Below, piece after piece: positions 5,184-37,540 of a stretch of 43,108 nucleotides of DNA (position 1 is the first letter of the stretch; each line of letters opens with the position of its first letter). The notes beneath the pieces were generated by a model. That model worked only from the letters and a program-made list of their open reading frames with translations, was not told where the DNA came from and made no database searches. This stretch comes from a virus. Taxonomy: Duplodnaviria; Caudoviricetes. The stretch is from positions 1-43,108 of the IMG/VR virus record IMGVR_UViG_3300003965_000020; one strand, given 5' to 3'. The position numbers and the translations under genes are program-made.

Positions 5184-6046
5184 GGCAGTTCCACTTCGAT
5201 GTAGAGGTTGGCTTGGGTCCAGGTGGCGCCGCGACCCCCACCGTGCTCGACGAAGAGCGCGGCATCGGCGGCGGTGAGATGCGGCCCGCCGCCCCGGCTG
5301 ATCCAGAGGGAGGCGCCCGCAATGCTGAGGCCGCGATCCCAACCAATCTCGAGGAAGGCTGCGGCGTCGAAGACGCGGAGGTCTGGATCGAGGTACCCAA
5401 GCGCCGTCACGCCCGGGGGCACCGGATAGCTGAACTGGGAGGGAAGCGAGCGTAGTGTGCCGCCGTCGCCGGTGTTCCGTCCCTGCACTTGCGGGTAGAA
5501 GGCAGGGCTTCCGCCTGCGGTCCATGTGGCCGCGCCGCTCACCGGGTCATCGCGCCAGATGCCGTTCTTGCCGATCCAGAGACGGCCGAGGGCCGGGTCG
5601 AGGACGAACATCAGCACATCGCCTGCGCCGAAGGTGGGCAGACCGGTCAGGCGCTGTTCGGCGGTGGCGGTGGCCGAGGACCAGAGCGCGCCGGTGCCCC
5701 GCCAGCCGATCGAACCCAGCGTGATGGGGTTGAGGCCCGCATTGAACTCCTCGCGCTGCGCAGCCGCGACGACGCCCATGTAGCCGTCGAAGGTTGCGGC
5801 ACCTGGGGCGCAAAGGACTTCCCAATAGCGCCGCCCGTCTGTCGGCAGGATCGCTTTGGCGGTCGGCACCCAACGCAGGTAGTTCGTTCCACCCGAGGTG
5901 TTGACGGCGGTCTGGTTGCCGTTCGACAGGGTGTAGCCGGAGGGACAGCGGGTGATGTCGAGCTGCCAGACCGCGCCGATATCGACTGGGGGCGCAGCAT
6001 CCCCGCTTTGGGCGAGGATGGCGCCGCGCATCATCAGAAGGCTCAT
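5180..6046 (-). CDS. SPRY/B30.2-like domain protein (tail-associated)
   Basis: 'TLSNGNQTA...GRRYWEV...YMGVV...FGAGDVLMFVLD...GRLWIGKNG' SPRY pattern; ATGA overlap at the start. Confidence 0.7.
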   Translation of the reverse strand: MSLLMMRGAILAQSGDAAPPVDIGAVWQLDITRCPSGYTLSNGNQTAVNTSGGTNYLRWVPTAKAILPTDGRRYWEVLCAPGAATFDGYMGVVAAAQREEFNAGLNPITLGSIGWRGTGALWSSATATAEQRLTGLPTFGAGDVLMFVLDPALGRLWIGKNGIWRDDPVSGAATWTAGGSPAFYPQVQGRNTGDGGTLRSLPSQFSYPVPPGVTALGYLDPDLRVFDAAAFLEIGWDRGLSIAGASLWISRGGGPHLTAADAALFVEHGGGRGATWTQANLYIEVELP

Positions 6047-6720
6047 GCAACGGCTCCCGCCAGCGCGCCTTGGATGATCCAGGCATCGGCGCCGCGCTTC
6101 ACGAGTGCTGCCCCTGACCATTGGCCGTCGAGAGCAACGGAACCGCCCACAACCCCATTCAGCGACACCCCGGGTGCTGTAGCCACGGTGGCGACACCGG
6201 CGCCGACCTGTGTCACGTTGATAAGCGATCCGATCTCGAAGGGAACATTGGCCTCCGTCGGGATCGTCACGGTGACGGCAGAGGAACCTGTGGTCTCGAT
6301 TATGCTGCCCAGATCGACGGCTTCCAGCGTGTAGCTTGTGGCAGTCAGGGTCCTGATGCGCACGGTCCCCGGGCGTGGCACCTCGACCCATGCCCCGGCC
6401 GTGAAGCGCACGTGCCGCGCCTCATCGGCGACCCAGACCTGCCAGCCCTCCTGCGGGGGTAGGTAGACCCAAGCCGCTGCCCCGGCGGGCGACTGATCCC
6501 AGAGCGCCAGCGCATTGGCGTTCGCCCCGGCTGCGGCGGGCACGATCAGCATCTGGCCTGCGCTGCCCGTCGCAGGCAGCGGCGTGGTGCGGGATGCGGC
6601 GCGCGCCTGCACGAGGACCGAGAGGCGGCGGAGGTCTTCGCTGAGGCTGGTGCCCCAGTTGCGCTGGCCGGGATCGTAGAAGGCGCGCAGCCCCAATCCC
6701 GGCATGATCCGTTCCGGCAT
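6043..6720 (-). CDS. DUF2793-like tail fibre/adaptor protein
   Basis: 'LALWD...WVYLPPQEGWQVWVADE' motif and C-terminal 'VTIP...FEIGSLINVTQVGAG...WIIQGAL' fibre domain. Confidence 0.65.
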   Translation of the reverse strand: MPERIMPGLGLRAFYDPGQRNWGTSLSEDLRRLSVLVQARAASRTTPLPATGSAGQMLIVPAAAGANANALALWDQSPAGAAAWVYLPPQEGWQVWVADEARHVRFTAGAWVEVPRPGTVRIRTLTATSYTLEAVDLGSIIETTGSSAVTVTIPTEANVPFEIGSLINVTQVGAGVATVATAPGVSLNGVVGGSVALDGQWSGAALVKRGADAWIIQGALAGAVA

Positions 6721-6753
6721 ACTCGTCCTCGTTCGTTATTTTGAATTCCGGGG

Positions 6754-9700
6754 TCAGGTGCCCCAGAGGAAACCCCAGCCGCGGTCCCATCCGGCGGCGA
6801 AGGGCGCCGTCAGTCGAAACCACCGCGCCTCGCGGTCTGTGACCCAGCTGTCCTCGACCAGACGCCGGGACCGGACGGCCAGTTCGATCTCGGCCGTCCG
6901 ATCCGGGGCGCCGAGTTCCGGGATGGCCTCCGGAGCGAGGGACCAGCTGGCGGCACTGCCTGCATCCATCACCACGCCCGCGGGCAGGATCGCGATGCCG
7001 CTATCCGGATCCACCCAGCGCACTTCGATGATGTAGCCGACGCCCGGTTCCGGGCCGATCGAGGCGCCGGTGTGGTCGATGATGACGGGACTGGTCTGGG
7101 TCAGCCGATCACGGTGCGTCCAGCTCAATGTGAGATTGCCGGTGACTAGCGCATCGACATTGGGGGCGTAGCTGCCATTCCCTTGCACGCGCCCGGGCGG
7201 TAGGGGCCGGATGGCGCGGCGGTCGAGGGTGACGTTGTCCTCTGGGGCAAGCGCAAAAGCCAACGTGCCACGCCCGGTCTCGGGCAGAAGCCGCGCGGTC
7301 AGCGTCTCGCCAGCCGCCCAGCTGTCTTCGGGGATCCGTGCCACATCGTCGAAGAAGATGACTGGCGTGCCGGAGGCATGGGCGCGCGGAACGGTGTCGA
7401 GGCAACCCCGACCGACGGTGACGCTGCTCGGCGTGATCCCATCCACGCGGACCAGTTCGCCATCGATGCTGGCCAGCGTGCCGATCTCAACCTCGCCGAT
7501 ATCGCGCCAGCCGGTCACCGGGATCACCCGTGCCTCCGGGCTATCGGTCACATCGGCGGCCAGTAGTGCCGTCGGGGCGAAGGCGACCACGCCCTCCTGT
7601 GTGGGTCCGGTGCCGGGATCGACCCAGAGCTGGGCCGCCAAAGCATCGGCGCTGGGGCGTTCGCCGGTCGCAAGTAGCGCGCCTGCGTCCGGATCGTCGG
7701 CAATGCGGCGGTCGGCCTCGCTGTGGCCAAGCTCGCGGACGAGAAGCCAGTACGGGGCTTCCTCGACCATGCGGCGCGCGAGGGCCCGCGGCGGGGCGGC
7801 GACACCGGTTCCCGTGGGCATCCGCCCACCCGCGATGGCGGTAGCGCCCAGCGCGAAGACATCCTCGGCGATCTTGAGCCGGATACCGTTGTCGCGGCCG
7901 TCGCCCTGTCCGATCTCAGAAATCCGCATCACGACGTCATCGAGACCCAGCCGCGTCGAGCGCAGCCGGATCACATCCCCGGGGCCGAGATCGGCCCCCT
8001 CACGATTGACGACGATCTCTCCAGTCAGGAGCGGCGCCGACAAGGCACGCAGGTCGCGTTCTGCCACTCGCACGGCGAGCCCCTGATAGCGGATGCCGGG
8101 ATAGTCGAGCGTGGTGGCCAGCACCTCGCCCATGGCCTGGACGCGGGCGGTGTCGGTCACGCTGACCGCCCCGGTGTCGTCGGTCCAGGCATCGGTGAAT
8201 CGGACGGTGACACTGTTCACGAGATCAGACGGGGATCGGCGCCCGAGGCGACCCCAATCCACAACATTGGTCTCGTCGAACAGCGGCAGCGTTGCGGCTG
8301 TGTAATCCGCCCGGATCAGCTTCAGCTCCCAAAGCCCGGTGCGCCGGTCGATGAAGAGCGTGGCGTCGATATGGTCGAGGACGCTCGCGACGAACTCCTC
8401 GATGGACGAGTCCTGCTGCCAGATCAGCGAGAGGCCGAAGCCTTCGTTGTACAGGGTGTCGGCAGCAGTGTTGAAACTCGCCCCGATCTCGACCGACGAA
8501 TATCCAAGGCCCCAGTCCCGGTTGGTCAGGCATTCCCGGATGATGTGAGCCGGGTTCATGTCCGGGCCGTTGCCGAAGGCGCCGCGCAGCGAGGCAACCA
8601 GCGCCTGCGGATTGCCGGGCGGGATCACCGGCACGCCGTCCACGGGCGTGTTGTCGATGCGCGCGGTGTAGGACGTGTCGCTCAGCGCGATGTTGAAGCC
8701 GAAGATGTCTGCGGGCGGCAGGGTGCGGATGATCGCCAGCGCCGCATCGACCGAGGAGACCGGTGCGGGTTCACCATCGGTCACGAAGATCACGATCCGG
8801 CGCTTTGACCCGCCGCCTGCAAAGAATGCGCTGGCCTCCGCGAAGGCCGCGTTGAAGCTGGTGCCGCCGTTGGTGAAGTTCGAGAGCCCGAGCATCCAGG
8901 TCTCGAGCGCGGCATAGTCGGCAGGCCCCATGTTCCGCCGTTCGATGGATCCAGCGACGGCCACGTTCCAGAGGACGATGCGGATATCGTTCGGCCGGTC
9001 AGGATCAACGCCTGCGGCAATCTCGCGGATCAGCGCGGCGACACCCGCCTTCTGGGCCGACATGCGCGTGCCCGACATGGAGCCCGAGACATCAAGGGCG
9101 ATGTAGATCGCGGCATCCGAGATGTTCGCCTCGGGAACGATGGCCGCCTTCTCGGGATACCATTGCGCTGCGCCTGCCTCGCCGGACAGCACGCGAGTTA
9201 CGCGCACCGCCCATGGCTTCAGGTAAGGGTTGATGCCGAGATAGACCTGCCGCAGCACGAGGCTGCAGAGGCCGCGATAGGCGGGAACGTCTCCACCCAT
9301 GCGTGCAGCGAGATAGTCGTTCGCCCCCTGGCTCGTCCCGCCCATCAACACATCGACGTCCCCGCGGATGCCGCCCTCCCGGCTCTCCCCGCCGAAAAGG
9401 TCGGGCTTGTCGATCCGGATGCGCCCGCCACCGGCACCGGTACTGCTGGAGCCGGTCGTGGCCTCAAAGACCTCGACGGTCTGGGCAGCGAAGCTCAGGG
9501 CCTCGGGCAGCACGGTCCAGCGGGTGATGTTGGCGGCCGCATCGAAGGTAACGGCCTGCAGAGTGATCGTCTGGCTCGACCCGTTGACGAGCGCGAGGCG
9601 ATAGTCCTGCCCGATGCGCACGCCTGCGCGGGTGCCAGGTAAGCTGATGGTCGCGCCACTGTCGCCTGCCAGTGCCGCCGTGGCAGTCATTCCAGTGACC

Positions 9701-11211: not shown

Positions 11212-12374
11212 TCCAGAACCTCCACGACCGGCAGGGTCACTTCACTGGCCACGGCGCCGTTCCGGATCTCCACGCGATCCGCATCCGATCGCACCAGCGT
11301 CAGGAAATGCACCTTCGTCCCGATGGCCACCGGCTCGCCGAGGCTCGAAGACAGCGTCAGCCGGTGATCCGCGCCGTCCGCCACAGCCGCGTTGACCGTC
11401 CGGAACCGGAACCCGCTCGGCATCTCGAGGAGGATGGCGCGCCCGACATAGGTCGCCAGTTCCGCAACGGGCACCACGCGCATCAGCGTGGATCCGGAAG
11501 TCATGGCCGCACGCAGCTGCAGCTCGCGCCCCCACGTTGGCAACCAGAAGCTGGCCTGGCGGCCGCGCAGCGACCAGAGCCAGCGGCGCAACGCCCAACG
11601 CTCCGCCGCGCCCTTTGCCTTGAGGGTGATCGCCTCGCCCCTCTCGAATAGATCCCGCAGCGGCTCGACCACGACCGGCCCGAAACCGTTGTCGACATAT
11701 TCGACGGCACGGCGCAGGCTGGCGGTGATCGGCGAACGGGTCAGGCTCGGGTCGGTCTGGACCGGGCGACCAAGATAGGTCGGCAGCACGGGCGCGGTCA
11801 GATCAGGGGCATCGCGCAGCAGGAAGGTGGCGGTGATCATGCCGTCATTCTGGCGGCGACGGGCGACCTCGACAGGCGCTGAAAGAATTCCTTCCCGCAC
11901 TGGCGCGACGGTGATGCGCGCAGCGGCCACGGATGGTGCGGGCAGCTGCGCACCCAGCGGTTCCACCAGGATCAGCCGATCCGCCTCGACACTGGCAAGA
12001 TCCGCCATCGCTGCGTCGCGCCCATCCACCGCGATGGCCACCGCGTCCCCCACCCGGAAATCTGCCGCGCTAGTGTCGACGGCAATCTCTGTCGCGCCGT
12101 GCGCAACATCCGCCGTCGGCTGGACCGCCATGTGCCAGAGCGGCACTCGCCATTCGGCTACAAACCACGCCCGCACCAGTTCTGCCGCCCGCGCCATGGC
12201 CAGCGCGTCGCCGCGATGCTGGAAGGTGACGATCTCCCGCGGGCGGGATCTGAGCGCGATGCGCTGTTCGCCCGCTTGGGACTGCAGCACATCCGTGCGC
12301 CATTCGAGCACCTCGGTGATCTCTTGCGCCGCCGGAAAGGGCCAGAGTGGCGGCCGGCCATCCGGCTCAGGCAT
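11208..12374 (-). CDS. Distal tail protein
   Basis: 'E.LEWRTDVL....GEQRIALR..PR' and 'LRGRQASFWLPTW'; directly follows the tape measure gene. Confidence 0.7.
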   Translation of the reverse strand: MPEPDGRPPLWPFPAAQEITEVLEWRTDVLQSQAGEQRIALRSRPREIVTFQHRGDALAMARAAELVRAWFVAEWRVPLWHMAVQPTADVAHGATEIAVDTSAADFRVGDAVAIAVDGRDAAMADLASVEADRLILVEPLGAQLPAPSVAAARITVAPVREGILSAPVEVARRRQNDGMITATFLLRDAPDLTAPVLPTYLGRPVQTDPSLTRSPITASLRRAVEYVDNGFGPVVVEPLRDLFERGEAITLKAKGAAERWALRRWLWSLRGRQASFWLPTWGRELQLRAAMTSGSTLMRVVPVAELATYVGRAILLEMPSGFRFRTVNAAVADGADHRLTLSSSLGEPVAIGTKVHFLTLVRSDADRVEIRNGAVASEVTLPVVEVLE

Positions 12375-14829
12375 TGATGGCACCCCGATTGCGGCGAATG
12401 ACGTTCAGGATGGCCCGCTCCCCCGACGGCGTGGCGAGATAGTCGCCGACGACGGAGGGGTCGAGCACGTTGATGATCCGCGTCGACATGGAGGATGCCG
12501 CACCTGCGCCGTCGCCGTTCATCTCGACGCCGAGCCTGCCGCCTTTTCCACGCCGCAGGGGCAGGATGGCTTCGGGCCCAGCCTCACCCATGAGCCCCAC
12601 ACCTTTGGCGAAGGGAAACACCGTTGGCCGGTTCACGACGCCACCCCGCGCGAAGGCCGTCAGTTCCGCGCCGCCCGCGAAGACCCCACCCTTGGCAAAG
12701 CCGAAGAGGTTGCCGAAGAACCCGCCGCCGCCCGAAAAGGCGTTGATCAGCGCGTTCTCGATCGGCTTGAAGGCGAGATCGATCAGCCGCGTGGCGAGGT
12801 TCTGTGCGATCCGCGAAATCGCCCCGGCAAAAGTCTCCCAGGTGAACTCGCCCGAGGTCAGAGCCTCCTTGATCGGGCCGGTGATGTCCTGTGCGAGGCC
12901 TTGCGCGGTCTCGCGCGACTTCTCCTGCGCCTTGCGCACCGCCTCGGCCGTGGCCTTCCATGCGTTCTTCGCGGCATCGGCCCCCTCGCGCAGCGCATTG
13001 CCTGCGCCGCGCCCCGAACTGCCCGCAGCTTCCGCAGCCTCGCCCGCTCCCTGCAGGGCGGTGCCAAGACCTGTCGCGGCCGTGCGCGCGTCCTCGAGCC
13101 CGTCGGCAGCCTCGGTGCCGGAGGCCGAGACGGCCTCTCGCAGGGCCGCGACAGACTGCAGGGGCGCAGTGGCGGCCGTCGCAACCTCACCCATCATGTC
13201 GCGCAGACGCGCCGCTTCGCCCCGCGCTGCCTCGGCCGCCGCCGTCAGTCCCAGATCGGGCGGCGCGATGGGATCGCTATTGAACGCTGCCTCGAAAGCC
13301 GCGCGTGCTTCTGCCCCGGCATTAGCCGCCGCCCCCGCGAAGGGGTTCTCGATCCCACCCAGCTCGATGGTCCCGATGAGGGGCACCCGTTTCTCGATGC
13401 CAAGCACATCGAGACCGGCATTGATCCCTTCCAGGAAGCCGTCGATGCGCGCGGCCACGCCGTTCAGCATGGCCTCGACCCCGCCGATCAGCGCATTGGC
13501 CGCGCCATAGGCGAACTCGCCGATGGTCGCAGGCAGGGCCGACCAGAGCACCTTCACCGCCTCCATCGCCCCCTGAAACGTGTTCAGCGTCGCGTTCCCG
13601 AAGCCCACCACCGCTTCGAGCCCGGTCTGTAAGGCGGCGGTGATGCCTGCGCTGATCTCGGCCCAGCCCGCCATGATCGAAAGACCCAGCGCCACCATGC
13701 CGAGCTTCATCCGGTCCCAGACCTCGCGGGCAAGATCAGACAGGAGGCCCAACGCGGCCCCGACACTGCCTGTGCCTTGCACCAGCCGACCGAACTGGAA
13801 GATCAACTCGCCCGCGCCGACGATCAGCGCCCCGATGCCGGTGCGGATCAGCGCGCCACGGAGGACGACAAGCGCCGTCGCAAGCCCCCGGACAGAGAGG
13901 GCGGCGGCGGCGAGCCCCGCCACCCAGCGCCCGGCCATGATGCCCACGAAGGCCGCGGCATAAGACGCCATGCGCCCCAGGTTCTCGCCCAGCGCATCAA
14001 GGGCGGTGCGCAGCGCGCCGCCCTCGGAAGCCAGCGTCACGAAGGCCTCGGCGAGCCAGGTCACGGCAGGCGCCACAGCGACTGCGATCTGGTTGCGGAT
14101 CCCGTCGAAAACCATGCCGAGACTGCCCAGTGCGATCTGGGTTTGGCGCAGGGAGGACAGCGCCTCACCATCGAGGATCGCACCAACCGAGCGGGCCTGA
14201 TCGCCGAAGCGGGTCATCTCGGCCCCGCCATCGCGCAGCAGCGGCAGAAGGCGTGTAGCATCCGAGGCCATGGCCTCGAGGTAGAAGGTCATCTCCTGCT
14301 GGCTGAGACCAGCCTTCTCGAGCGAGGTCACATAGAGCTGCAGGGCTTCCGGCCCTGAGAGGCGCGCGAATTCTTCGGCCGTGACACCCACGAGCGGGGC
14401 GATCTGTTCAAAGAAATCCTTCATCGGCCCGCCGCCGGTCTGCAGGAAATCCCCGACCCGGTCGTTCACGTCCTTCAGGATATCGGCAAGCTTCTCCTGC
14501 TCGACCCCGACCGTGCGGGCCCCTGCCGCCCAGCGCTGGAAGCTCTCGGGCGTGGCATTGGCCACTTGCGCGAACTGCCGGATCTGGTCGGCGCTCTGGG
14601 CAGCATTGCGAACGATGATGCCAAGCCCTGCCGTCGCGGCAGAGGCAGCAGCGGCCACGGCGATCCCGGCACGGCGCGCGAAGGCGGCAAGCCGTGTGTT
14701 CGCAGCTTCCATCTCGCGCGACAGGCGTCCGAAGCCGCGCGTCCCTGCCTCGCCGATCCCTTCCAGTTCGGCGCGCACCTGGCGGCCGCCCACGGCCGCG
14801 AGGCGGACAGAGACCCGTTTCTCAGCCAT
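12367..14829 (-). CDS. Tail tape measure protein
   Basis: 820 aa, Ala/Gly-rich helical; C-terminal 'FARGGVV..PT.F...GLMGEAGPEAILPL'. Confidence 0.9.
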   Translation of the reverse strand: MAEKRVSVRLAAVGGRQVRAELEGIGEAGTRGFGRLSREMEAANTRLAAFARRAGIAVAAAASAATAGLGIIVRNAAQSADQIRQFAQVANATPESFQRWAAGARTVGVEQEKLADILKDVNDRVGDFLQTGGGPMKDFFEQIAPLVGVTAEEFARLSGPEALQLYVTSLEKAGLSQQEMTFYLEAMASDATRLLPLLRDGGAEMTRFGDQARSVGAILDGEALSSLRQTQIALGSLGMVFDGIRNQIAVAVAPAVTWLAEAFVTLASEGGALRTALDALGENLGRMASYAAAFVGIMAGRWVAGLAAAALSVRGLATALVVLRGALIRTGIGALIVGAGELIFQFGRLVQGTGSVGAALGLLSDLAREVWDRMKLGMVALGLSIMAGWAEISAGITAALQTGLEAVVGFGNATLNTFQGAMEAVKVLWSALPATIGEFAYGAANALIGGVEAMLNGVAARIDGFLEGINAGLDVLGIEKRVPLIGTIELGGIENPFAGAAANAGAEARAAFEAAFNSDPIAPPDLGLTAAAEAARGEAARLRDMMGEVATAATAPLQSVAALREAVSASGTEAADGLEDARTAATGLGTALQGAGEAAEAAGSSGRGAGNALREGADAAKNAWKATAEAVRKAQEKSRETAQGLAQDITGPIKEALTSGEFTWETFAGAISRIAQNLATRLIDLAFKPIENALINAFSGGGGFFGNLFGFAKGGVFAGGAELTAFARGGVVNRPTVFPFAKGVGLMGEAGPEAILPLRRGKGGRLGVEMNGDGAGAASSMSTRIINVLDPSVVGDYLATPSGERAILNVIRRNRGAINA

Positions 14830-14845: not shown

Positions 14846-15146
14846 CTATTCGTTCAACTTGCGCACCATCACGGCTTCGATCAGCGGCAGCAGTTCGACG
14901 ACGGCGCGCGGGGAAATGCCCATCGCGGATGCCATGGCCAGTGCCGCCGTCATGTCCCACCCGAGGACAGCGCCAGGGATGGCGCGGATCTGGCCGCCCA
15001 TGCGCTGCGCCAGATCCCAGACCTGCCAGCCCTCATGGCTCAGGGGGGGCGTTCAAGATTTGCGGGCAGTCCGGGCAGCGCCCTTCACAGGCTTGGCAGT
15101 ACCCTTCGCCCCCACCGAAGACCCAGTCGGCGAGGGCGTTGAGACG
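14846..15146 (-). pseudogene. Tail assembly chaperone extension (lambda gpT-like), apparently broken by an extra base in the G7 tract at 15043-15049
   Basis: The -1 frame reads 'RLNALADWVFGGGEGYCQAC...CPDCPQILNAP' then stops; with one base fewer it continues 'LSHEGWQVWDLAQRMGGQIR...RKLNE'. Confidence 0.55.
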
Positions 15147-15490
15147 TTTTTTTCCGCCTCGAGCTCCAGACCCTTTGCGACATAGGCGGTCTGGAACTTC
15201 TCGAAGATCGGCCAGAGATCGAGAAGCGCGTCGATGGCCTCGGGGCTGACCGGGATGGGAACCCCACCCGCATCGCCGACACCCTCCCAATCGACGATGG
15301 CGCGAGCGGCGATGGCCTTGGCAAAGGTCACCGCGATGCTGTCATCGGGCGTTCCGGGGGCGATGGTGCGCACGGCCGGATCGGTGCGGGCGGCGACCAT
15401 GATGGCCGTGGTGAGCGGCTCGACCTTGACGCGCACGCTCAGCGCAAGGTCGAGCCAGCAAGCCTCGCGGGAAAGGTTCAGGCGCAGCAT
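15053..15490 (-). CDS. Tail assembly chaperone (lambda gpG-like)
   Basis: Between tail tube and tape measure; 'IVDWEGVGD..G...P'; contains the GAA AAA AAC slippery site. Confidence 0.8.
   Translation of the reverse strand: MLRLNLSREACWLDLALSVRVKVEPLTTAIMVAARTDPAVRTIAPGTPDDSIAVTFAKAIAARAIVDWEGVGDAGGVPIPVSPEAIDALLDLWPIFEKFQTAYVAKGLELEAEKNVSTPSPTGSSVGAKGTAKPVKGAARTARKS
15146..15152 (-). other. Programmed -1 frameshift heptamer A AAA AAC
   Basis: X XXY YYZ heptamer in frame near the 3' end of the chaperone; the -1 frame is open downstream. Confidence 0.75.
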
Positions 15491-16963: not shown

Positions 16964-17530
16964 TCAGTCTGCATAACCCAGCCTAGCGCCAGACAGCGAC
17001 TTTCCGACAAGAAAACTATGGAACTCTGATGCTTTGACATCCAAGGGCAGTTTAAATCTCCCGCCAAGAGGGTGATCATCATCTTTCAGGTACTCAATTC
17101 CTGGTAATAGCTTTCGGATTAGCGCTATTGCGCTGCCCTTTTTTCCAGAGGCATTCACGGTACGCATAAGCTGGTCCCAATCGCGATGCGTCACCACCCG
17201 TTGAGTAAGTGAAAGTATGCTTTTGATTTCGGCGTCGATGGCTATTTCTTGCTCGCGCTCTTTGATAAGAACTGAAATCACTTCATAACCAAGCTTCGTT
17301 GGGACCCACCCGTCATCTTTTGGCTTTGCTAATCCTTTATCTTGAAGTCGACGCCTTATTGGGCCCTGTTGGCCATAGCCATGAGATGAACCATGCAGAT
17401 ACGGAAAAAGATCCATCAAGCTTTCGCATTGGGGGCGGGTGAGCGAATATCGTAGCGAACTGGCCAAAGGGCTCGGCACAGGAAGCTTCCGTATCGCCTT
17501 GTCGCGAAGTTGTTCAATAGGTGATTTCAT
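16964..17530 (-). CDS. Hypothetical moron protein, possible winged-helix segment
   Basis: Lower-GC 188-aa ORF; 'RRRLQDKGLA...WVPTKLGYEV' resembles a wHTH wing. Confidence 0.55.
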   Translation of the reverse strand: MKSPIEQLRDKAIRKLPVPSPLASSLRYSLTRPQCESLMDLFPYLHGSSHGYGQQGPIRRRLQDKGLAKPKDDGWVPTKLGYEVISVLIKEREQEIAIDAEIKSILSLTQRVVTHRDWDQLMRTVNASGKKGSAIALIRKLLPGIEYLKDDDHPLGGRFKLPLDVKASEFHSFLVGKSLSGARLGYAD

Positions 17531-17767
17531 TTTCAGCCCGTGTCGTAGTTTGCGGTGCGAGAGAAAATTTTGTATCGTCGAAGAAACTTATTGCGGCCTT
17601 TTAAAATGTAAACTTTGTGACTCGACGCTAGCTTCGTGTTGATGCGTGCCTGGCAGCAATCAAGAGGCTTTGTCACGATTAGTGCGGCTCGCACAGAACC
17701 TTGTACAATACCAACAAGTCCGGCATGCCAGAAATAGAGCCACCCAGCACTGGCCTTTGACGCTTGC

Positions 17768-18280
17768 TCACCCAACCAATTCATAACGATAAGAATCATG
17801 GTCGATCACCAAATCAACTCCATCCCAGACGGCTTCTGCGCTCTCAGCAGCAGAGACAGTGTACCAGAACTTGCTGGCAACCAGGTCTTCAATCAAGTCA
17901 CGAATGAAAAATCTCTCTCCAATCGCTGCATCGGACGGGATAATATAAGCAGCCCAATCACTATCGCGGCGAACTGAGCGCGCGTACCCTTCAACATCTT
18001 GAATGAGTTCCCAGTCTTCCTCAGTGTATGATTTCTTTCCGCGACCATACTGCTGAAAAACTTCGCGGCTTGGCGTTACTATGTATTCGCCATCCTTCCG
18101 ATTTCGCAAAAGGAGCGCAAAAGTTTGTAGCTCTGGATTTTTCATCAATTTTCTTAATTTGCATATCGCGCCAGCACGATGTGCGCTATTCAGCTGGCCG
18201 ATATCAAAAACAGTAACTATTTCTCGTAGTTCGTTCTTGTTCTTGAGGCGGTCTGTTTCGCACGAAAATGCATTAAACAT
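17768..18280 (-). CDS. Hypothetical moron protein
   Basis: Lower-GC 170-aa ORF overlapping the upstream gene by 8 nt. Confidence 0.6.
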   Translation of the reverse strand: MFNAFSCETDRLKNKNELREIVTVFDIGQLNSAHRAGAICKLRKLMKNPELQTFALLLRNRKDGEYIVTPSREVFQQYGRGKKSYTEEDWELIQDVEGYARSVRRDSDWAAYIIPSDAAIGERFFIRDLIEDLVASKFWYTVSAAESAEAVWDGVDLVIDHDSYRYELVG

Positions 18281-18536
18281 CTTGAACTCCCGAAAATAGC
18301 GGGTTCATTCGGTTTATATACACGCATGTATCGGGATTCTCTCGTAGGATGGCGATAAGTTCGTCCTCTTCCAGAATGTCAGTGTTGACTATCGATCTTT
18401 CGCAATGCCCGCAGAGGAAATGATCATCATTTCTCTTCTGTAGCTTGGATCCCTTGACCTGCTTTGGGCATGACAGCGTCTTCAGCTTTGTTCCGTCACT
18501 TGCGTATAAGGTTTCGTTGAGTATTCGTATTGGCAT
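18273..18536 (-). CDS. Small Cys-containing (possible Zn-binding) moron protein
   Basis: C-x18-CxxC...C pattern; strong GAGGAGGT RBS just upstream. Confidence 0.65.
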   Translation of the reverse strand: MPIRILNETLYASDGTKLKTLSCPKQVKGSKLQKRNDDHFLCGHCERSIVNTDILEEDELIAILRENPDTCVYINRMNPLFSGVQDV

Positions 18537-27750: not shown

Positions 27751-28338
27751 TCATCGCTGACCCTTAAGCTTCTGGTCATCTGGCCGCATCGCGAACCATT
27801 CCTTACGAATGGCTTCACGATGTGACTTTACAGCCTTCAGGGCGGCAGCTTCACCCCTGAGTTTGCGTTTCCCCGCCACGACACGCGGTTCAACTTCTAA
27901 AGAGATGTTGATCTTGCCATCTTGAAGCTGGACGGTCACATGCGGGAAGCCAGTGTGCTTGGACTCGTTAGGATAGATGAACATCCTGAAACCGGTCTCT
28001 TCTTGGACTTCTTTCTCATCAAGACGTACTGCTCCCTCACCCTCGAATGAAAGCGCCTCGACGAAACTGTTCAATAGATGTGCTTCAAGCTCACCTGACA
28101 TGGCCGTTGTCTCGCCATCGGGAAACGTAGTGTACGAACCCGCCTGACGTTCAACTGCAGCATCTACCTCAGTTGGGTCATATCCTGCGTCCTTCATCTG
28201 CTGTGCGGCAATCGGGTATGCCCGTAGCAGCGCCAGTGCCATGTCGTCGCCATTCTTGATATCTGGCGCGGCAAGTTTGCCGACGAGGCTAGCCAGATTC
28301 ATTTCGACGTTTGAATATTCGCGCAGGGCGTCGATCAT
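27751..28338 (-). CDS. Moron protein with C-terminal DUF4160-like (toxin-type) domain
   Basis: 'GFRMFIYPNE..H...PHVTV...I...W' pattern; lower GC than flanks. Confidence 0.55.
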   Translation of the reverse strand: MIDALREYSNVEMNLASLVGKLAAPDIKNGDDMALALLRAYPIAAQQMKDAGYDPTEVDAAVERQAGSYTTFPDGETTAMSGELEAHLLNSFVEALSFEGEGAVRLDEKEVQEETGFRMFIYPNESKHTGFPHVTVQLQDGKINISLEVEPRVVAGKRKLRGEAAALKAVKSHREAIRKEWFAMRPDDQKLKGQR

Positions 28339-31303: not shown

Positions 31304-31360
31304 CGCTAGCGAACCGCCGCGCTGCGCCCCCCCGCATACGTTTGGGGCCGGGGAGGAACC
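31304..31360 (-). other. Lambda-like cos site (cosQ-cosN)
   Basis: Minus strand GGTTCCTCCCCGG...TATGCGGGGGGGCGCAGCGCGGCGGTTCGCTA parallels lambda GGGTCCTTTCCGG...TTACGGGGCGGCGACCTCGCGGGTTTTCGCTA; terminase is gpA-type. Confidence 0.65.
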
Positions 31361-31497
31361 ATGCCGTGGGGTAGGATATCGCAGTAGGGTTGCAAAAAGA
31401 GTCCGATGTGATGATAGCAGCAGTGATGCGCCTAAGTGTCCGAAGCAGTTTGCCGAACTGTCAAACGCCAGACTAGCAACCGAAGGTCGAACAGTTA

Positions 31498-31740
31498 ATG
31501 AACGAAGAAGCAGCCCCAAGCGCAACTCTGGATGTACAAGGGATGCTTTGCCCGCTTCCCGTCTTGAGAGCAAAGAAAAACCTTAAATCGCTAAAAGTCG
31601 GTGAGACGCTTCTCGTACTCACAACGGATCCAGTCGCGCTTATTGATTTGCCGCACATGTGCGCGCAGTTCGGCCACACGCTTCTTGAGATCAAGAACAC
31701 CGATGCAGGGCACTCATTTTTGATCAGGAAGGCAAGCTGA
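31498..31740 (+). CDS. tusA: TusA/SirA family sulfur carrier
   Basis: 'LDVQGMLCPLPVLRAKK.L..L..GE.L.VL.TDP....D' with the CPxP motif, 80 aa. Confidence 0.92.
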   Translation: MNEEAAPSATLDVQGMLCPLPVLRAKKNLKSLKVGETLLVLTTDPVALIDLPHMCAQFGHTLLEIKNTDAGHSFLIRKAS

Positions 31741-31744
31741 GAAG

Positions 31745-33289
31745 CTATTGGGCCTTCCATGACTGGATTTTCCTAGCAGACGGATCACCGCGCCGCTTTA
31801 CATAGGCCTGCCCAGTAGAGAGCGTTGCCAGGTTGGCGGCCTTCCCTAGGATACGAGTGGCGTTCCTTGATGGCGCATTGGTTGAGAATGCGGCGACCAA
31901 GCCCATCTCGCTGAGGAAATCATCATCCTCACCCGTGAAGTCATCAGGCGACTGTGAGATCAGCATCACTGCGCCACCTTTAGATCTGCTCATCCGAACC
32001 AAATTGGACAGCGAAGGCAGTTTGGTTCCAAGCACGCGGTGTGCCTCATCGACCATTGCAATAATCCGCATCCCGCGGCTACCGTCGCCGTCTACAGGTG
32101 TGTCCGGAAGGCTATTGAGATACTGGTCAAGAGCGTCCAGCACAAGATTCACAACAATACTCCGGCTTTCTTCCACTACATGCGGGGGAAGTTTGATGAT
32201 CCAGCTACGCTGAAAAAATTCTTCCGGTTTCATCTCAGGAACAAACAGCGGAAACCGGCATACTTCACGAGCGGCAGCTATCGCCCCGTCTTCTTTAATC
32301 CCGCGCTCTGCATAGACATTGGTCAATTCACTCTGAAAATCTCGGAGCTCACATGGCGTCTTCGTGGTTAGTGCGCGTTCCGCCGCTTCGTAAACAGCGT
32401 CCCGCTGCTTGTCGCCCAATTTGGCACCCTTCAATCGAGAGAATGACTCTCTAAAGCGTGATGCCGCTTGGGAAATATCGATGCTTTCACGACTTCTAAG
32501 TGAAAGTACGTCCAATGGAATAGGCATTCGGGGAGGTTCAATGACCGTCGCGTCAAATAGGCTCTCAAGGTGATAGCCGCCACCTGCGTCATCCGTTGCC
32601 AAGTCGCCTTTGAAATCAAACGCAATAATAGGCAACGGTGCACGCTTCCTAAGGCCCTTGAGAATCGCAACTGCGGTCCGAGTTTTACCTGAGCCAACGC
32701 CCCCCATGATAGCGCTGTGAGGTGAACATCCAGAACCGTTTAGAATCCACTCAAGATCAGCACCGGTACTTGCGTCAGTCGAAATCTCTCCTATTGGCAC
32801 GGACACGAGACCGGAACTAGCAAAGCCTGGCCGCAAAGACGCTTTGTCGCCGAGCGACATGCGACCGGACAGAGGAAGTTCGGCGTGTTCAACAAGGCGA
32901 CGAACGAACTTAGAAATGTCTTCGCCGGTTTGCTTCCAGTCGGCGTCCAATAGCAAAATCCCACGCCGCCAGTGTGCTGCCACGATATTGATGAGCGATC
33001 GCAGATCCTGTTCAGAGCTTGGGCTATGTTGGATTACTATTGAGATCCAAGACATTAGTGTCACGCCCGTTCCGAAGAGAGTGTCGCCTTTAATCGTTTT
33101 GCCCCAATCGGCCCCTTCGGCCACTGGTTCAGGTGGAGTTGGCACTCCAAGGGAACGCGACAAAGCGAGGCGTGCTGGAAGGTAGCGCTTTCTCATGCCA
33201 AGGCGCTTCATGAACTCAGTGTTCAGTTCGTCTGATGCCTCGTCCGTTCGGAAGTTTGCGCCGGCAACCTCTACAACTGTAAATGTCAT
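31745..33289 (-). CDS. dndE: DndE-like domain fused to a HerA/FtsK-type P-loop ATPase (DndEi-like)
   Basis: N-terminal 'FRT..AS...ARLALSRSL...GK.IKGDTLFG...H..RG..LL'; Walker A GGVGSGKT, 'FDFKGD', Walker B MVDEAH, 'RMSRSKG..V.L.SQ'; ATGA-coupled to dndD. Confidence 0.7.
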   Translation of the reverse strand: MTFTVVEVAGANFRTDEASDELNTEFMKRLGMRKRYLPARLALSRSLGVPTPPEPVAEGADWGKTIKGDTLFGTGVTLMSWISIVIQHSPSSEQDLRSLINIVAAHWRRGILLLDADWKQTGEDISKFVRRLVEHAELPLSGRMSLGDKASLRPGFASSGLVSVPIGEISTDASTGADLEWILNGSGCSPHSAIMGGVGSGKTRTAVAILKGLRKRAPLPIIAFDFKGDLATDDAGGGYHLESLFDATVIEPPRMPIPLDVLSLRSRESIDISQAASRFRESFSRLKGAKLGDKQRDAVYEAAERALTTKTPCELRDFQSELTNVYAERGIKEDGAIAAAREVCRFPLFVPEMKPEEFFQRSWIIKLPPHVVEESRSIVVNLVLDALDQYLNSLPDTPVDGDGSRGMRIIAMVDEAHRVLGTKLPSLSNLVRMSRSKGGAVMLISQSPDDFTGEDDDFLSEMGLVAAFSTNAPSRNATRILGKAANLATLSTGQAYVKRRGDPSARKIQSWKAQ

Positions 33290-35367
33290 TTGCGGGCCTC
33301 CTGACCCGCGAAATAGCCTTCACGGACTGAGGATTCTCCTGTGTCGCCGACACGTTCAAAGCTGATCAGGAACTTTTTTTGCACATTCTGTTCGATCTCT
33401 TCCAAGTATTCACCGACCACTTCTGTGTTGGTTGAAAGAAGAATTACTTGGTGGCCTCGTTGGACGAGATGTCTAAGAACGCCCTTACGATGCGCTACGT
33501 CGAGTCGGCCAAGCGGCGTATCGATCACCATTGGAAATGCGCGCTGCGACACAGAGGCAACGGCAGAGATCAACGCTTGTGTGAAGATCTGCTTCTCGCC
33601 TGCAGAAAGGTCATAGTTTCTCAGATCTACACCTTCCTTGTTCAGTAGGCGGACCTGGCAGTCATCGTCAATATCGATCCGATCAACCATATCTTTCTTG
33701 TGCGCCATTGAGTGATGCGCCTGCGTCATTGCTTTTGCCACTGCTGAAATCTGGCTTGGGACGGCTTGGTTCACTATTGAGTCAACCATCGTTGCAACCT
33801 TGAGCGCTCGCGAAGCCCTGCGGAGGGAAGGTTTCGCCTGATCCCACGCGCCAGACAGCTTGGACAACTCGGTGTTCTTCTTCACAATGTCGGCTTCGTA
33901 GACGGAAACTTCGCGCTTCAGTGCCCCAAGTTCTTGATCCACCTCTTGAATCCGTCCATTGACGGCAGCCAAATCCGACTTTTTCTTGTCGACATGCGGA
34001 GCAATGGACTCAGTACGGGTGATCTCGTGCTGGAGTTTGTTATAGGCCTCATCATTGGCCGAGATACTGTCCAGGAGTTCCACCACTGCGGGTGCACCAA
34101 GCTCATCGAGCTGATCAAGTTGCTCGACGACCTTGAGCTTGTCCATTTCGTTCAGGTACGTGTGAACGATGCTTTCAGAAATGTTTGTCGGGGGCGGATT
34201 CCAAAGTGTGTCCCACGCCTCTGAAGCAATGGCTACTACAGCTTCTTTTTGAACGTCAGCTAGATCGGGCCTTACGTCGTCAAGTGAGGCACGAACATTG
34301 GTGAGGTACTTGGTCAGATTGGCGTCGCCCTGTTGGCGGCCAACCTGCCATTTGTCCCTCATTATTTCACCCTGAAGCGACTTCTTCAGTTGGTCGCGTA
34401 GCCCCCTCCCCGACAACGCGAGCGCGATATCTTGGGCAAGCAGTGTCTCTAGCCGGGACTTTCCATCATCGAGTTCTCGACCGAGCCGGTTGAGCCGCTC
34501 GAACTGCTCTTGGAACTGCGCTTGCGAGCCTGCCCCGAAGCTGGCCAACTCACGTTGGAGCTTTTCGCGCTGTTCCTTTAGGCTTGCATGCTCAGGTTCA
34601 AGTTCAGCAACTCTCTCCTTCCGTTTTCCAAGCTGAAAGTTTAAATTGTCGAGGTCTAATTCGATCCGATCAATTGTCCGGTCGGAGACATTATTTACTT
34701 CGCCTTTTCGGACTCTGGCATACGCCCTAAGGTCTTGGGCCAGTTCTTTAAGGACTGGAATACCAAGCAATCCTTCAATACCAGATCGTACCTGCGCGGC
34801 CATCTCACGTTCTGCAAAAGCGCTTACTTGCTCGCCATCGAACAGGAAGAATGCTGCGAGATAGTAGGGCAAGAAACGCCTGGCAATGAAATCCCGGTAC
34901 CATTCGAGATCCTCTCCATCGTCAGCGGCGGTGGGGCCAACAACGCGCTTAGTGGTGCCTTCGTATATGCGTACTTCTTCATCACCGGGGCGAAGTGCGC
35001 CCTTGTCAGTAAAATACCAGATGCGTTGGATTTCGATTTCTTCGCCGTCGTCGACAAAACATAGTTTCACCGAGCAAGATGTTCGGCCTGCGTCAACGGC
35101 GCCACGGTGTATAGCCTTCTCCAAAAACGCTCTGTAGGAGGTCGCTAAACGCTGCTTGTCATCACTGGAAAATGGTGACCGAGCGACAAGAGGGAGGCCA
35201 CTTTGGCCAAATAGGCCCAACACAATTGCTTCGAAAAGACTAGTCTTACCGAAGCCATTTTGAGCGCCAATCAGGATGATATTGCGATGTACTTCGGGCG
35301 CAGGGAAGTCAAAATTGCCAACCGTATAAGCCTTCCAGTCCCGCAGGACGATGCTCTTAAGATACAT
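33286..35367 (-). CDS. dndD: DNA sulfur modification protein DndD (SMC/ABC-type ATPase)
   Basis: 'LIGAQNGFGKTS', 'FFLFDGE', long coiled coil, 'LSAGEKQ', 'IDTPLGRLD..HR', 'QVILLSTNTEV'. Confidence 0.9.
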   Translation of the reverse strand: MYLKSIVLRDWKAYTVGNFDFPAPEVHRNIILIGAQNGFGKTSLFEAIVLGLFGQSGLPLVARSPFSSDDKQRLATSYRAFLEKAIHRGAVDAGRTSCSVKLCFVDDGEEIEIQRIWYFTDKGALRPGDEEVRIYEGTTKRVVGPTAADDGEDLEWYRDFIARRFLPYYLAAFFLFDGEQVSAFAEREMAAQVRSGIEGLLGIPVLKELAQDLRAYARVRKGEVNNVSDRTIDRIELDLDNLNFQLGKRKERVAELEPEHASLKEQREKLQRELASFGAGSQAQFQEQFERLNRLGRELDDGKSRLETLLAQDIALALSGRGLRDQLKKSLQGEIMRDKWQVGRQQGDANLTKYLTNVRASLDDVRPDLADVQKEAVVAIASEAWDTLWNPPPTNISESIVHTYLNEMDKLKVVEQLDQLDELGAPAVVELLDSISANDEAYNKLQHEITRTESIAPHVDKKKSDLAAVNGRIQEVDQELGALKREVSVYEADIVKKNTELSKLSGAWDQAKPSLRRASRALKVATMVDSIVNQAVPSQISAVAKAMTQAHHSMAHKKDMVDRIDIDDDCQVRLLNKEGVDLRNYDLSAGEKQIFTQALISAVASVSQRAFPMVIDTPLGRLDVAHRKGVLRHLVQRGHQVILLSTNTEVVGEYLEEIEQNVQKKFLISFERVGDTGESSVREGYFAGQEARK

Positions 35368-35373
35368 ACGGCT

Positions 35374-35574
35374 TCAATCTCCGATTTCTATGCGGTCAAG
35401 TATGTCATCGAAAGAGTCCCAGAGGCCCTTCTTTTTCTGCTTTCCGGTTTGATCAACTTCAACCTGCACCAACTCTGTGAACTCCGGGAAGCTTATACCG
35501 TTCTCGACACACTCTTCGCGGACTAGGGATCTGCCCTCGGGGTTGTCGAGCAATACGACGACATTTCTAGCCAT
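35374..35574 (-). CDS. Small DNA-modification-system-associated protein (resembles a detached DndC C-terminal helical region)
   Basis: 66 aa, packed between dndC and dndD with 2-nt and 6-nt gaps; 'LVREEC.E.GI....F.EL...E......KKKGL...D.IL'. Confidence 0.65.
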   Translation of the reverse strand: MARNVVVLLDNPEGRSLVREECVENGISFPEFTELVQVEVDQTGKQKKKGLWDSFDDILDRIEIGD

Positions 35575-35576
35575 CT

Positions 35577-36737
35577 CTATTTGACCTTCTTGATCAACGT
35601 GTTCACCGAAGCAGCGTCAGACCGTGTGGGTGCCACTAACTCTTCAGACCATAGCCGACGTATTTCTTCAATTTCCTCACGCGAAATCAGTTCGGACCTC
35701 TGGTCAATTTGTATGGAGAGAAGACGGTCAAGAATTTCCTGCCTGGTTTCCATCGTGAATGGACCCGGTACGTAGGTTCCTGTGTCAGTAATGGTTATGG
35801 TGCCATTCCTGCGTCTCGCTTGACGACGCTTTGGGTCATTCCTGATCTCAACAAGCCAGTCGCGAAAATCAAGAAGCGGCCCAAACTCTACAAACCCAGA
35901 GTCAACAAAACCTTCGAGGCTTCTGTCCTTGTCAACAACTGTGCACGTCCAGCAGCCAAAGCGGGACGATGAGCTTCCGCATGAAGGTGCATCAGATTTT
36001 TGCGTTACGACTGGGCATTCTCCACCACCTGCATCCCTGTAGAGCTTAATCAGCTTCCGGTAGTCACCGCCCCAAGGGGCGTCGTTGGCTGCAAGATACT
36101 CCCAAACTTCATCTGTGGAGAGTTCTACAATCGGCCTGAAAACTTGGCATCCTGCCAAATCATTGTGGCGGTTGAGCCTTTCCCCATTATCATATCGCTT
36201 TACAGATGCGGCGCGAGTTGCGCTCTCACTGCGTCGGACACCCAGCAGGAGGATTACGGTCTCGTTGCGTTCGATCTGGGCTTTGATATAGGCTGAGGTC
36301 GGCTGAATTTTCATCCGATCGGTGCACCAGCGGAAATTGCGGTTTGGAGACGGATAGCCACGGCCGATCACATTAACCCAGAAGGTTTGGCTCAACGCTG
36401 GCCTTGTGATCTGCGTCACAATCGGAAGACGCAGTGCGCGCGCGGCTTCTGCAATTTGGTCCATACTGTCAATGATGTGCTGGATAACCAGCGGGCTCTC
36501 AACAAGTGTGTCATTTGACACGATGTGGATTTGGCGTTTTCTCTGGCTCCTCGGCAGTTTGAGAAGCGCTTTAAACACCAGATGTGCAACTAGAGTGCTG
36601 TCTTTTCCGCCAGAGTAGCCTATGACCCACGGGAAATCATGCGGTTGAAGATATTCATCAAGTATCTCGGCTTCGATTAAAGCTATTCCTTCGTCAAGCG
36701 AAAGATCGCTGAAATCATGAAGCCGAAGATCATCCAT
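35577..36737 (-). CDS. dndC: DNA phosphorothioation sulfurtransferase DndC (PAPS reductase family); likely start MDDLRL at 36737
   Basis: 'PWVIGYSGGKDST', 'DTLVESP', 'FWVN.IGRGYP.P...FRWCTDRMKI.PT', 'GECP', 'SRFGCWTCTVV..D.S', 'PGPFT...R'. Confidence 0.93.
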   Translation of the reverse strand: MDDLRLHDFSDLSLDEGIALIEAEILDEYLQPHDFPWVIGYSGGKDSTLVAHLVFKALLKLPRSQRKRQIHIVSNDTLVESPLVIQHIIDSMDQIAEAARALRLPIVTQITRPALSQTFWVNVIGRGYPSPNRNFRWCTDRMKIQPTSAYIKAQIERNETVILLLGVRRSESATRAASVKRYDNGERLNRHNDLAGCQVFRPIVELSTDEVWEYLAANDAPWGGDYRKLIKLYRDAGGGECPVVTQKSDAPSCGSSSSRFGCWTCTVVDKDRSLEGFVDSGFVEFGPLLDFRDWLVEIRNDPKRRQARRRNGTITITDTGTYVPGPFTMETRQEILDRLLSIQIDQRSELISREEIEEIRRLWSEELVAPTRSDAASVNTLIKKVK

Positions 36738-36868
36738 TTTTTTGCCTGTCGGTAGTCCCAATCTTGCTGATGGGGGTCTATGTTGCTTGGGAATGTCGCA
36801 AGATGCACCCTTGGCGTCAAGCGCTGATCCTGCGCCGCCCGGCGGTCTTGGTTGCGTTTGGTCAGTTT

Positions 36869-37540
36869 TCACGGGGTCTTAGCGCCGTTGCGCCAAGGTT
36901 GCCCTCTAGGCATCGCTGCCGTCACTTCAACCTCCTGCAGCATCCCGCCCGCGATCAACCCACCTCGCACCCAGTCTAGCGCTTGCCACCAGTCCTCATA
37001 GCCACGCCGGGCAGATGCGATTTGTTCCGGATGCGGCCGCCAAGTCACCGGGCAGGCCAGCACGTCCACCGTTCGCCATTTGCCGCGCGTTTTCACCCGT
37101 TCGGTACCAACGACAATGGTCGTTGCCCGCTCGCCATGCTGGTTGGTCTTGATTTCCAACGGCACGCAGCGTGGGACGACACCTGGCATCCATCCTGGGG
37201 TCAGGCCAGCTCGCGCCAGCTCGGCCATTTGGATTGCCATGCGGATGCCGCCGAGGCGGTCGGGCATGCCTGCGACGGTGGCGGCGATCACCTCAGCATC
37301 TGGATTAGTGTAGCTGCCGATCTTGTGCTGGCCGCCGTCCACCTTGCAGCCAAGCATCGCACGCTGCAGCAGGACGTATTCGAGGCCAAAACCGAAGCCT
37401 TCCTCGGCCCCGTCCTTTGGTGGTGGCAGTTCCAGCTGCGCTTGCTCGACGCGGAACGCCCATTCCAGCGCAGCTTGGACGGCCAGCGCGCGTTTCACCT
37501 TTGTGCCGCCCGCGCGCCCGATCCTTCCTTGGACGCTCAT
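36869..37540 (-). CDS. Conserved hypothetical phage protein (position of a late regulator)
   Basis: 223 aa, ATGA-coupled to the upstream ORF, phage-like GC. Confidence 0.6.
   Translation of the reverse strand: MSVQGRIGRAGGTKVKRALAVQAALEWAFRVEQAQLELPPPKDGAEEGFGFGLEYVLLQRAMLGCKVDGGQHKIGSYTNPDAEVIAATVAGMPDRLGGIRMAIQMAELARAGLTPGWMPGVVPRCVPLEIKTNQHGERATTIVVGTERVKTRGKWRTVDVLACPVTWRPHPEQIASARRGYEDWWQALDWVRGGLIAGGMLQEVEVTAAMPRGQPWRNGAKTP

Follow-up and report, generated by a model that had tools for sequence, protein, structure and literature searches.

A 43,108-nt virus record (IMG/VR IMGVR_UViG_3300003965_000020, analysed over its whole length and called the window below) carries, at positions 31498–36737, a five-gene cassette in which the DNA phosphorothioation proteins DndC, DndD and DndE, the last fused to a HerA ATPase, are accompanied by a small protein of 66 residues and a TusA sulfur carrier. 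We read this as a mobile cassette of a lambdoid Rhodobacterales prophage that writes phosphorothioate (PT) into DNA and is used for anti-phage defence of the lysogen, a reading that we hold to be about evenly balanced between right and wrong. The four-gene core belongs to a subtype already in print, as set out in the main text of PMC10853773, and the window provides a further member; what is added here is the dedicated TusA and the prophage hotspot in which the cassette sits.

The four core genes form a tight operon on the minus strand. It is led by dndC (35577–36737; 386 aa), which encodes a PP-loop, PAPS-reductase-like, sulfur-inserting enzyme and is followed by the small open reading frame (ORF; 35374–35574; 66 aa, predicted helical), the gene for a DndD-related coiled-coil ABC ATPase (33286–35367; 693 aa) and the DndE::HerA fusion gene (31745–33289; 514 aa). 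The last two genes overlap by 4 nt, and the other gaps in the operon are 6 nt and 2 nt. On the plus strand, tusA (31498–31740; 80 aa) converges on the operon, its stop codon lying 4 nt from that of DndE::HerA. The cassette has a G+C content of 52.1% (0.54 at third codon positions), versus 65.8% (0.83) for the phage backbone. An earlier note, made from the letters of the window, had described these five coupled, low-G+C ORFs and the convergent tusA, and its coordinates, junctions and composition were verified. Its gene identities also stand: TusA, DndE with HerA, DndD and DndC each score above a curated cut-off, and the 66-aa ORF has no direct match.

DndC matches TIGR03183 with 402 bits (cut-off 290). 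Its SGGKDST loop and cysteines C138, C241, C253, C262 and C265 are invariant among 27 homologues; the protein is of the short form typical of the subtype, approximately 60–80 residues below the canonical profile length, and its profile has no match among solved structures. The ABC ATPase matches TIGR03185 with 270 bits (cut-off 246), and in a 16-sequence alignment its Walker A motif, LSAGE signature and Walker B motif are intact and a CxC hook is absent. The best PADLOC match of this protein is a PbeC-labelled model (940 bits versus 314 for DndD). An assignment to the PbeC/CxC systems was rejected, since the protein lacks the CxC zinc hook in that alignment and PbeA was not found; without the hook, the ATPase is kept as DndD-related. 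The earlier note had reported no cysteine desulfurase, dndB, dndFGH or pbe genes. Neither a cysteine desulfurase nor DndB was found in the window by a Pfam scan of 38 chosen ORFs, and neither a full DndFGH nor PbeA by PADLOC scans of nine ORFs, so that the statement stands for the ORFs scanned, qualified by a hook-less ATPase that nonetheless scores best against a Pbe model.

In the fusion protein, residues 20–117 match the DndE family PF08870 (28.8 bits, cut-off 25) and are followed by the HerA domain PF01935. The protein is built from a DndE domain (residues ~1–135), a flexible linker and a C-terminal HerA/FtsK ATPase, whose Walker A (GGVGSGKT), Walker B (VDEAH), RSKG (arginine finger) and SQ motifs are conserved in 27 homologues. 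Its AlphaFold model has a predicted local distance difference test (pLDDT) score of 86. The profile and structure searches proposed in the earlier note named the families of the ORFs and gave, as the top fold match of this model, the C-terminal domain of DndH (7ES4, E = 2.8e-17), with HerA translocases and TdpA (PDB 8WET/8WFD) next best; weak PADLOC matches to DndH were also obtained. No nuclease domain was found in DndE::HerA by Pfam, predicted structure or fold search.

The small ORF has no direct profile match, and the window protein does not match PF20306. However, 5 of 20 homologues match this family weakly (best E = 2.9e-4), an ORF syntenic to it in a P2-like phage (L037) passes the PF20306 cut-off, and an Atlas lead for the ORF as Sp-DndD scored 0.76. 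From these family matches, the 66-aa product is probably a divergent Sp-DndD. Its Cys22 is near-invariant: of the family matches that cover the column, all 71 strong ones have it, as do 52 of the 61 weaker ones. The structural model is all-helical and of low confidence (pLDDT 66). Weak TusA matches in 2 of the 20 homologues had prompted a TusA-like reading, which was rejected on a profile-comparison probability of 0.4% (against a TusA alignment that includes one misframed row) and on the all-helical model. Elsewhere, a viral contig (L038:9358-10801) carries a dndC 68% identical to that of the window next to a small cysteine protein, with no dndD or dndE match and with neighbours of unknown function. 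This pair suggests that DndC has the small protein as its partner and that some phages may make do with these two.

Systems of this kind have been described by comparative genomics. According to the main text of Rakesh, Aravind and Krishnan (2024, PMC10853773), a subset of Dnd PT systems has its DndE fused to HerA/FtsK domains of clade 3, with a DndD-related ATPase alongside. With the window, this subset shares DndE::HerA, the adjacent DndD-related ABC ATPase, dndC, the small protein and the relation of its HerA to DndH; it is a prediction without experiment, and that main text mentions neither TusA nor prophages. The earlier note knew of no description of this composition in a phage. The four-gene core is in print in that paper; the tusA that travels with the cassette appears new. 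A literature search turned up no report of a complete dnd module within a prophage. A solo DndC match in a Sinorhizobium prophage is mentioned in a passage of PMC12429752, and solo DndC-like genes were also seen here in phages, at L047:9944-11197, L044:6454-7491 and L057:1710-2669 (Thermus phage Tsatsa), the first of them within a nucleotide-metabolism cluster of DNA polymerase A, dUTPase, Thy1, dNMP kinase and methyltransferase genes.

Comparison with better-known systems sets the cassette apart. With canonical DndABCDE–DndFGH it shares the DndC, DndD and DndE domains, and a host desulfurase is the expected sulfur source when dndA is missing; it differs in that dndA, dndB and dndFGH were not found, DndE is fused to a motor, DndC is shorter and a TusA is provided. 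The PbeABCD/CxC systems share the order of small protein, coiled-coil ABC ATPase and DndE cognate, in addition to the PbeC-labelled PADLOC match, whereas the cassette lacks the HKD nuclease–SF2 helicase (PbeA) and the CxC hook and is led by dndC. TdpABC likewise combines a PAPS-reductase-like writer and a HerA-fold translocase in a compact PT system. It reportedly (An et al. 2025) has a nuclease subunit and no DndD/DndE pair; by contrast, the cassette encodes both DndD and DndE, and no nuclease was found in it.

A scan of GTDB yielded 33 bacterial loci in alpha-, beta- and gammaproteobacteria, in which the gene order is constant as far as the contigs extend. The cassette is present in the named isolates Rhodobacter viridis JA737 and Paracoccus ravus YJ057, both of which belong to the subclade of the window and carry the linked tusA. 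Across the host order, DndE::HerA occurs in 8 of 401 genomes and DndC in 16 of 401. Neither dndA nor dndFGH was seen among the scanned neighbour proteins of the cassette loci, and the PT-associated families TIGR04096 and TIGR04172 neighbour the cassette in L024 and L008. Many cassettes stand amid housekeeping genes, and phages hold a minority of the copies, most being found in islands or chromosomes. Phage genes adjoin related cassettes in L008, L034, L037 and L043, and integrases or primases of satellite-like elements do so in L003, L005, L009 and L015. In L037 (positions 4717-9684), dndC, Sp-DndD, dndD and a DndE::FtsK gene are flanked by the repressor gene and a baseplate gene of the P2-like phage; here a phage has captured such a cassette independently, and the motor is a different one. 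No full-length match to DndE::HerA was found in 50,697 GenBank phage records. From IMG/VR, word patterns recovered no DndE::HerA; the IMG/VR blanks do not amount to absence, since a DndC scan reached distant phage-borne cassettes.

The cassette genes are intact and under strong purifying selection. Between the window and L001, a second prophage (in genome G001) whose identical slot is occupied by the same cassette, the ratio of nonsynonymous to synonymous divergence (dN/dS) is 0.011 for dndC, 0.016 for dndD, 0.042 for DndE::HerA and 0.082 for tusA. Synonymous divergence (dS) over the cassette is 0.05–0.27, versus 0.64–0.81 for three flanking phage genes, indicating that the two prophages came to share the cassette later than they did the backbone. 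A third prophage, L033, holds a remnant, with an intact tusA and a 72-residue piece of HerA, and no dndC was found in its genome. The occupied slot in L001 and the remnant in L033 indicate that the cassette moves between prophages. The G001 copy is intact, even though a search of that prophage recovered neither terS nor the first 168 residues of terL and three integrase genes are inserted alongside, as would be expected if the cassette genes were useful to the host.

The position of the cassette points to its use. It lies in a variable slot bounded on one side by a cos-like packaging signal (31328–31360, minus strand) and on the other by a conserved phage gene (36869–37540, minus strand; 223 aa; PHROG 9306). 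The signal was located by a motif pattern and presumably represents cos, given its likeness to the cosQ–cosN layout of lambda; the identical exact pattern was found in 17 of 147 loci compared, every one in this phage family. If the motif is cos, the packaged chromosome has the cassette at its right-hand end. Related viral loci (n = 36) were fetched through the conserved gene next to dndC, and 31 slots were read, with L079, L086, L099, L100 and L105 left out as too short or duplicate. The slots measure 1.3 to ~10 kb (8 lack the far flank and were read up to 10 kb) and are mostly GC-poor relative to the phage. PADLOC defence genes (E ≤ 1e-10; a single representative scanned for each protein cluster, with counting by hand) were found in 28 of the 31 slots, 23 of which hold a methyltransferase or restriction-type gene. 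Restriction–modification-type contents include type I, II, IIG, III, Hma and Mza-like systems, and other slots contain Hachiman, Kiwa, RosmerTA and PD-Lambda-like proteins. The site of the cassette is thus a cos-adjacent defence hotspot of a Rhodobacterales lambdoid phage family, and it is from the contents of these slots that a defence role is inferred. No dnd gene or tusA occurs in any of the 36 related viral loci. In the main text of Rousset (2022, PMC9122126), P2-like phages and P4-like satellites likewise have a variable slot by cos with exchangeable defence systems; the present slot differs in belonging to a lambdoid alphaproteobacterial family and in being dominated by restriction–modification-type systems, and the term 'Dnd' does not occur in that main text. 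PADLOC gave no match for slots L073, L087 and L090 or for many single genes in the slots surveyed (L072–L107; window 31360–36869); these are candidates for new defence systems.

The TusA of the window has an intact CPxP motif with Cys18 and matches PF01206 above the cut-off (83.5 bits). It falls below the NCBIfam equivalog cut-off for Escherichia coli-type TusA (61 versus 78 bits). A tusA adjoins the cassette in 7 of the 33 loci, 29 of which have at least 500 nt of downstream sequence; the gene is convergent in L001, L002, L003, L007 and L033, upstream in L014 and co-directional in L031. C18, P19 and P21 are invariant in eight linked copies, and tusA dN/dS is 0.08–0.4 across the measurable pairs. 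In the DndE::HerA tree, all five members of the subclade of the window have a tusA, whether they lie in a prophage, a satellite-like element or an island; the copies in L014 and L031 are two separate placements, so that the link arose in at most three independent events. At the same junction, tusA is kept in lineages whose synonymous sites are saturated.

The linked TusA proteins form a clade of their own, distinct from the housekeeping TusA of the hosts. In a tree built on an alignment of only 72 columns, with 46 outside TusAs chosen largely as the closest matches, seven linked copies group with 99/100 support on a long stem apart from those 46; the L031 protein is unplaced, on a long branch. 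A housekeeping tusA was found in 374 of 401 family genomes, 8 of which have two matches. Each of the five Rhodobacterales carrier genomes has two tusA genes, one at the cassette and one elsewhere, and in three of the five the latter lies between rne and ccdA; the linked gene is therefore an extra copy. That a second tusA might be a general sign of dnd was rejected, because five of the six other two-copy genomes were searched and DndC was found in none; the extra copies in the other two-copy genomes fall outside the linked clade. The idea that tusA is a phage backbone gene was likewise rejected, given its absence from all 36 related viral loci, and a viral scan with the linked-TusA alignment returned a single, unrelated match (38%). 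The association that the earlier note had noticed is real and stronger than the sequence alone could show. Among the 33 loci, most lack tusA, and most copies of the cassette lie outside phages. In some homologous cassettes, a S-adenosylmethionine (SAM) methyltransferase or a DGQHR protein stands at the position of tusA. A SAM methyltransferase family without a specific NCBIfam name lies beside the cassette in L004, L005, L006, L008, L009, L012, L022 and L032, in three of these at the convergent position that tusA has in the window.

From these observations we infer PT writing, a defence role and a TusA relay as likely, on the following scheme. In passages of PMC12707154 and PMC12914056, a desulfurase gives sulfur to DndC, and DndD with DndE directs insertion. 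For the cassette, a host cysteine desulfurase would load persulfide onto the cassette TusA; five carrier genomes each encode two to three Aminotran_5 proteins, of the cysteine desulfurase family and not typed further. TusA would then secure sulfur for DndC in competition with iron–sulfur (Fe–S) and cofactor pathways. TusA competes for IscS sulfur in E. coli, according to parts of PMC3296357 and PMC11446229, and a dedicated copy would, by extension, secure the flux to DndC in a new host. That TusA serves DndC seems to us slightly better than an even call. The conserved cysteine of the small protein may be a further sulfur station. DndC and the DndD-type ATPase would insert sulfur at sites chosen by DndE, in host and prophage DNA alike, a step in which we have good confidence. 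The fused HerA ring, brought to DndE sites, might then translocate on or jam unmarked incoming DNA, serving as reader or effector although it brings no nuclease. With no nuclease present, there is no candidate effector other than the DndH-like motor, and we regard this role as tentative, somewhat short of an even chance; otherwise, HerA may be a scanning motor for modification only.

Several observations weigh against this scheme. The defence step of a nuclease-free cassette is without tested precedent, and a literature search found neither a PT measurement for any member of the subtype nor an experimental test of DndE::HerA. It also found nothing that links TusA positively with DNA phosphorothioation, and canonical Dnd modification in E. 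coli proceeds without tusA, according to a passage of PMC3519819. The link of tusA to the cassette reflects few independent events; tusA is absent beside 26 of the 33 loci (4 of these cut short downstream), which makes it accessory; and four Rhodobacterales genomes with the HerA gene hold one tusA only, housekeeping-like. The tusA of L014 could be a leftover of a replaced cassette, and in L033 an intact tusA persists beside the HerA remnant in a genome in which dndC was not found. Finally, dnd systems correlate negatively with prophages in the part of Jian et al. (PMC8569181) that treats them.

The cassette could instead serve modification only, as an orphan PT writer comparable to an orphan methyltransferase, with which phage and host DNA escape PT-sensing or other restriction and in which HerA is a scanning motor. 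The lack of a nuclease and the three methyltransferases already encoded by the phage backbone fit this view, and the occurrence of DndC in 16 of 401 genomes of the host order means that PT-positive hosts exist. It sits less well with the defence systems in the slots of sister phages, with the location of most copies outside phages and with the blank for the full-length fusion in the GenBank phage records. Moreover, DndH (TIGR03237) was found in none of the 401 host-order genomes, nor in the carrier genomes, in a search in which no positive control rang, which makes escape from DndFGH less likely. We judge modification alone to be rather improbable. The earlier note had offered evasion of PT-based restriction and a compact defence moron as its two branches; the slot survey favours the latter, and the former is weakened by the DndH search, with that same limit, and by the distribution of the cassette. 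A more specific doubt leaves the dnd core as proposed and concerns TusA, which might compensate rather than relay, keeping sulfur available for tRNA thiolation and the molybdenum cofactor while DndC drains the desulfurase. It could thereby protect a tail-chaperone frameshift: TusA and IscU compete for IscS and loss of TusA shifts the lambda gpG:gpGT ratio in the relevant passages of PMC3296357, and the window has a slippery A run at ~15146–15153 (minus strand), which lies between the genes for the tail tube and the tape measure and is followed by an open −1 frame; judged from its sequence, this is likely a gpG/gpGT-type programmed frameshift. The dispensability of TusA for canonical Dnd and the separate transcription of tusA from the other strand also agree with a compensator. 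However, the linked TusA is no recent duplicate of a housekeeping gene, being its own long-branch clade, and its absence from the 36 related viral loci without the cassette indicates that it is no general phage helper; we think such a role unlikely.

The chemistry itself might differ, with the DndC-like enzyme making another modification or only activating (adenylating or nicking) DNA, and with defence by abortive damage instead of PT self-marking. The short DndC, and the methyltransferases and DGQHR proteins that take the position of tusA in homologous cassettes, would be compatible with this; the curated DndC cut-off is nevertheless passed, all five conserved cysteines are present, a sulfur carrier adjoins and PT-associated families are neighbours in two loci, and we give this reading little credence. 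Less credible still, to the point of being very improbable, is that the cassette is the decaying fragment of a larger dnd locus with tusA as a chance neighbour. It would account for the missing dndA, dndB and dndFGH and for the decayed copy in L033. It is largely refuted by the conservation of the four-gene form and its order across three proteobacterial classes, by the TusA clade and the persistence of tusA at one junction in synonymous-saturated lineages, and by dN/dS values of at most 0.08 (0.00–0.08). The earlier note had named a degraded fragment whose full homologues carry dndA or dndFGH as the finding that would count against it, and the scanned neighbours of the homologues contain neither.

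A candidate promoter of the dnd operon, read from the sequence, lies at 36792–36820 (minus strand; TTGACG, 17 nt, GACATT). A TTGAC...CTTGCGA pattern occurs upstream of the operon in four of five aligned regions; the window element is below the scanner threshold, and a promoter and terminator scan gave no excess over shuffles. Contigs from RNA libraries (three runs of one study) cover the operon at at least 99% identity, one of them reaching part of tusA, and their upstream ends fall at 36772–36776, just downstream of the promoter-like element. These ends fit transcription from a promoter of the cassette's own and are a weak hint of it, the contigs being without strand or level and DNA being possible in the libraries. 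In the same contigs the cassette is covered, and the lytic genes hardly or not at all; this contrast was set aside and not used as evidence, because the runs were found via the cassette, contigs cannot rank genes and a low-GC bias is possible. In four raw RNA runs the prophage was absent.

The remainder of the window contains genes for replication and lysis and for a lambda-type terminase, portal, head and tail. The window ORFs scanned yielded neither an integrase nor a repressor, for which reason the record looks like, and probably is, a partial prophage. The phage backbone does not clearly avoid known PT motifs, with observed/expected ratios of 1.05 for GAAC/GTTC, 1.03 for GATC and 0.89 for GGCC. 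At positions 1–2724 (plus strand), a 5′-truncated NACHT protein matches antiphage EruA (NF058535, 838 bits; cut-off 1000); its gene converges with the lysis genes and may mark a second defence cargo site or host flank. Two further low-GC inserts lie amid structural genes, one at 16964–18536 (minus strand; ORFs of 188, 88, 170 and 87 aa without a clear family match) and one at 27751–28338 (minus strand; a 195-aa ORF with a weak DUF4160 match). In G001, the lysis end of the related prophage (L150:3631-13237) holds a TerB-domain/helicase cluster and a Sir2–HerA pair, followed by another integrase and a phage early region, in tandem. Across the cos-like site from tusA, L001 has a WYL-domain gene (12226-12849) without a counterpart in the window; defence systems are often regulated by proteins with a WYL domain.

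The cassette bears on the sulfur route to DndC and on the role of PT systems without DndFGH. Because it is small, intact and bounded by known phage genes, one clone would bear on PT writing, on nuclease-free defence and on feeding by TusA. The boldest form of the proposal is a self-contained 5.2-kb PT immune system of temperate phages, in which sulfur passes from desulfurase to TusA, to the small-protein cysteine and to DndC, and a nuclease-free, DndE-guided HerA stops unmarked DNA; we consider it unlikely in this full form, but if true it would be the first TusA-dependent modification of the DNA backbone and would give PT-marked virions. The cassette runs counter to the avoidance reported between dnd systems and prophages, and it draws attention to a rich defence hotspot next to cos in a family of Rhodobacterales phages that is widespread.

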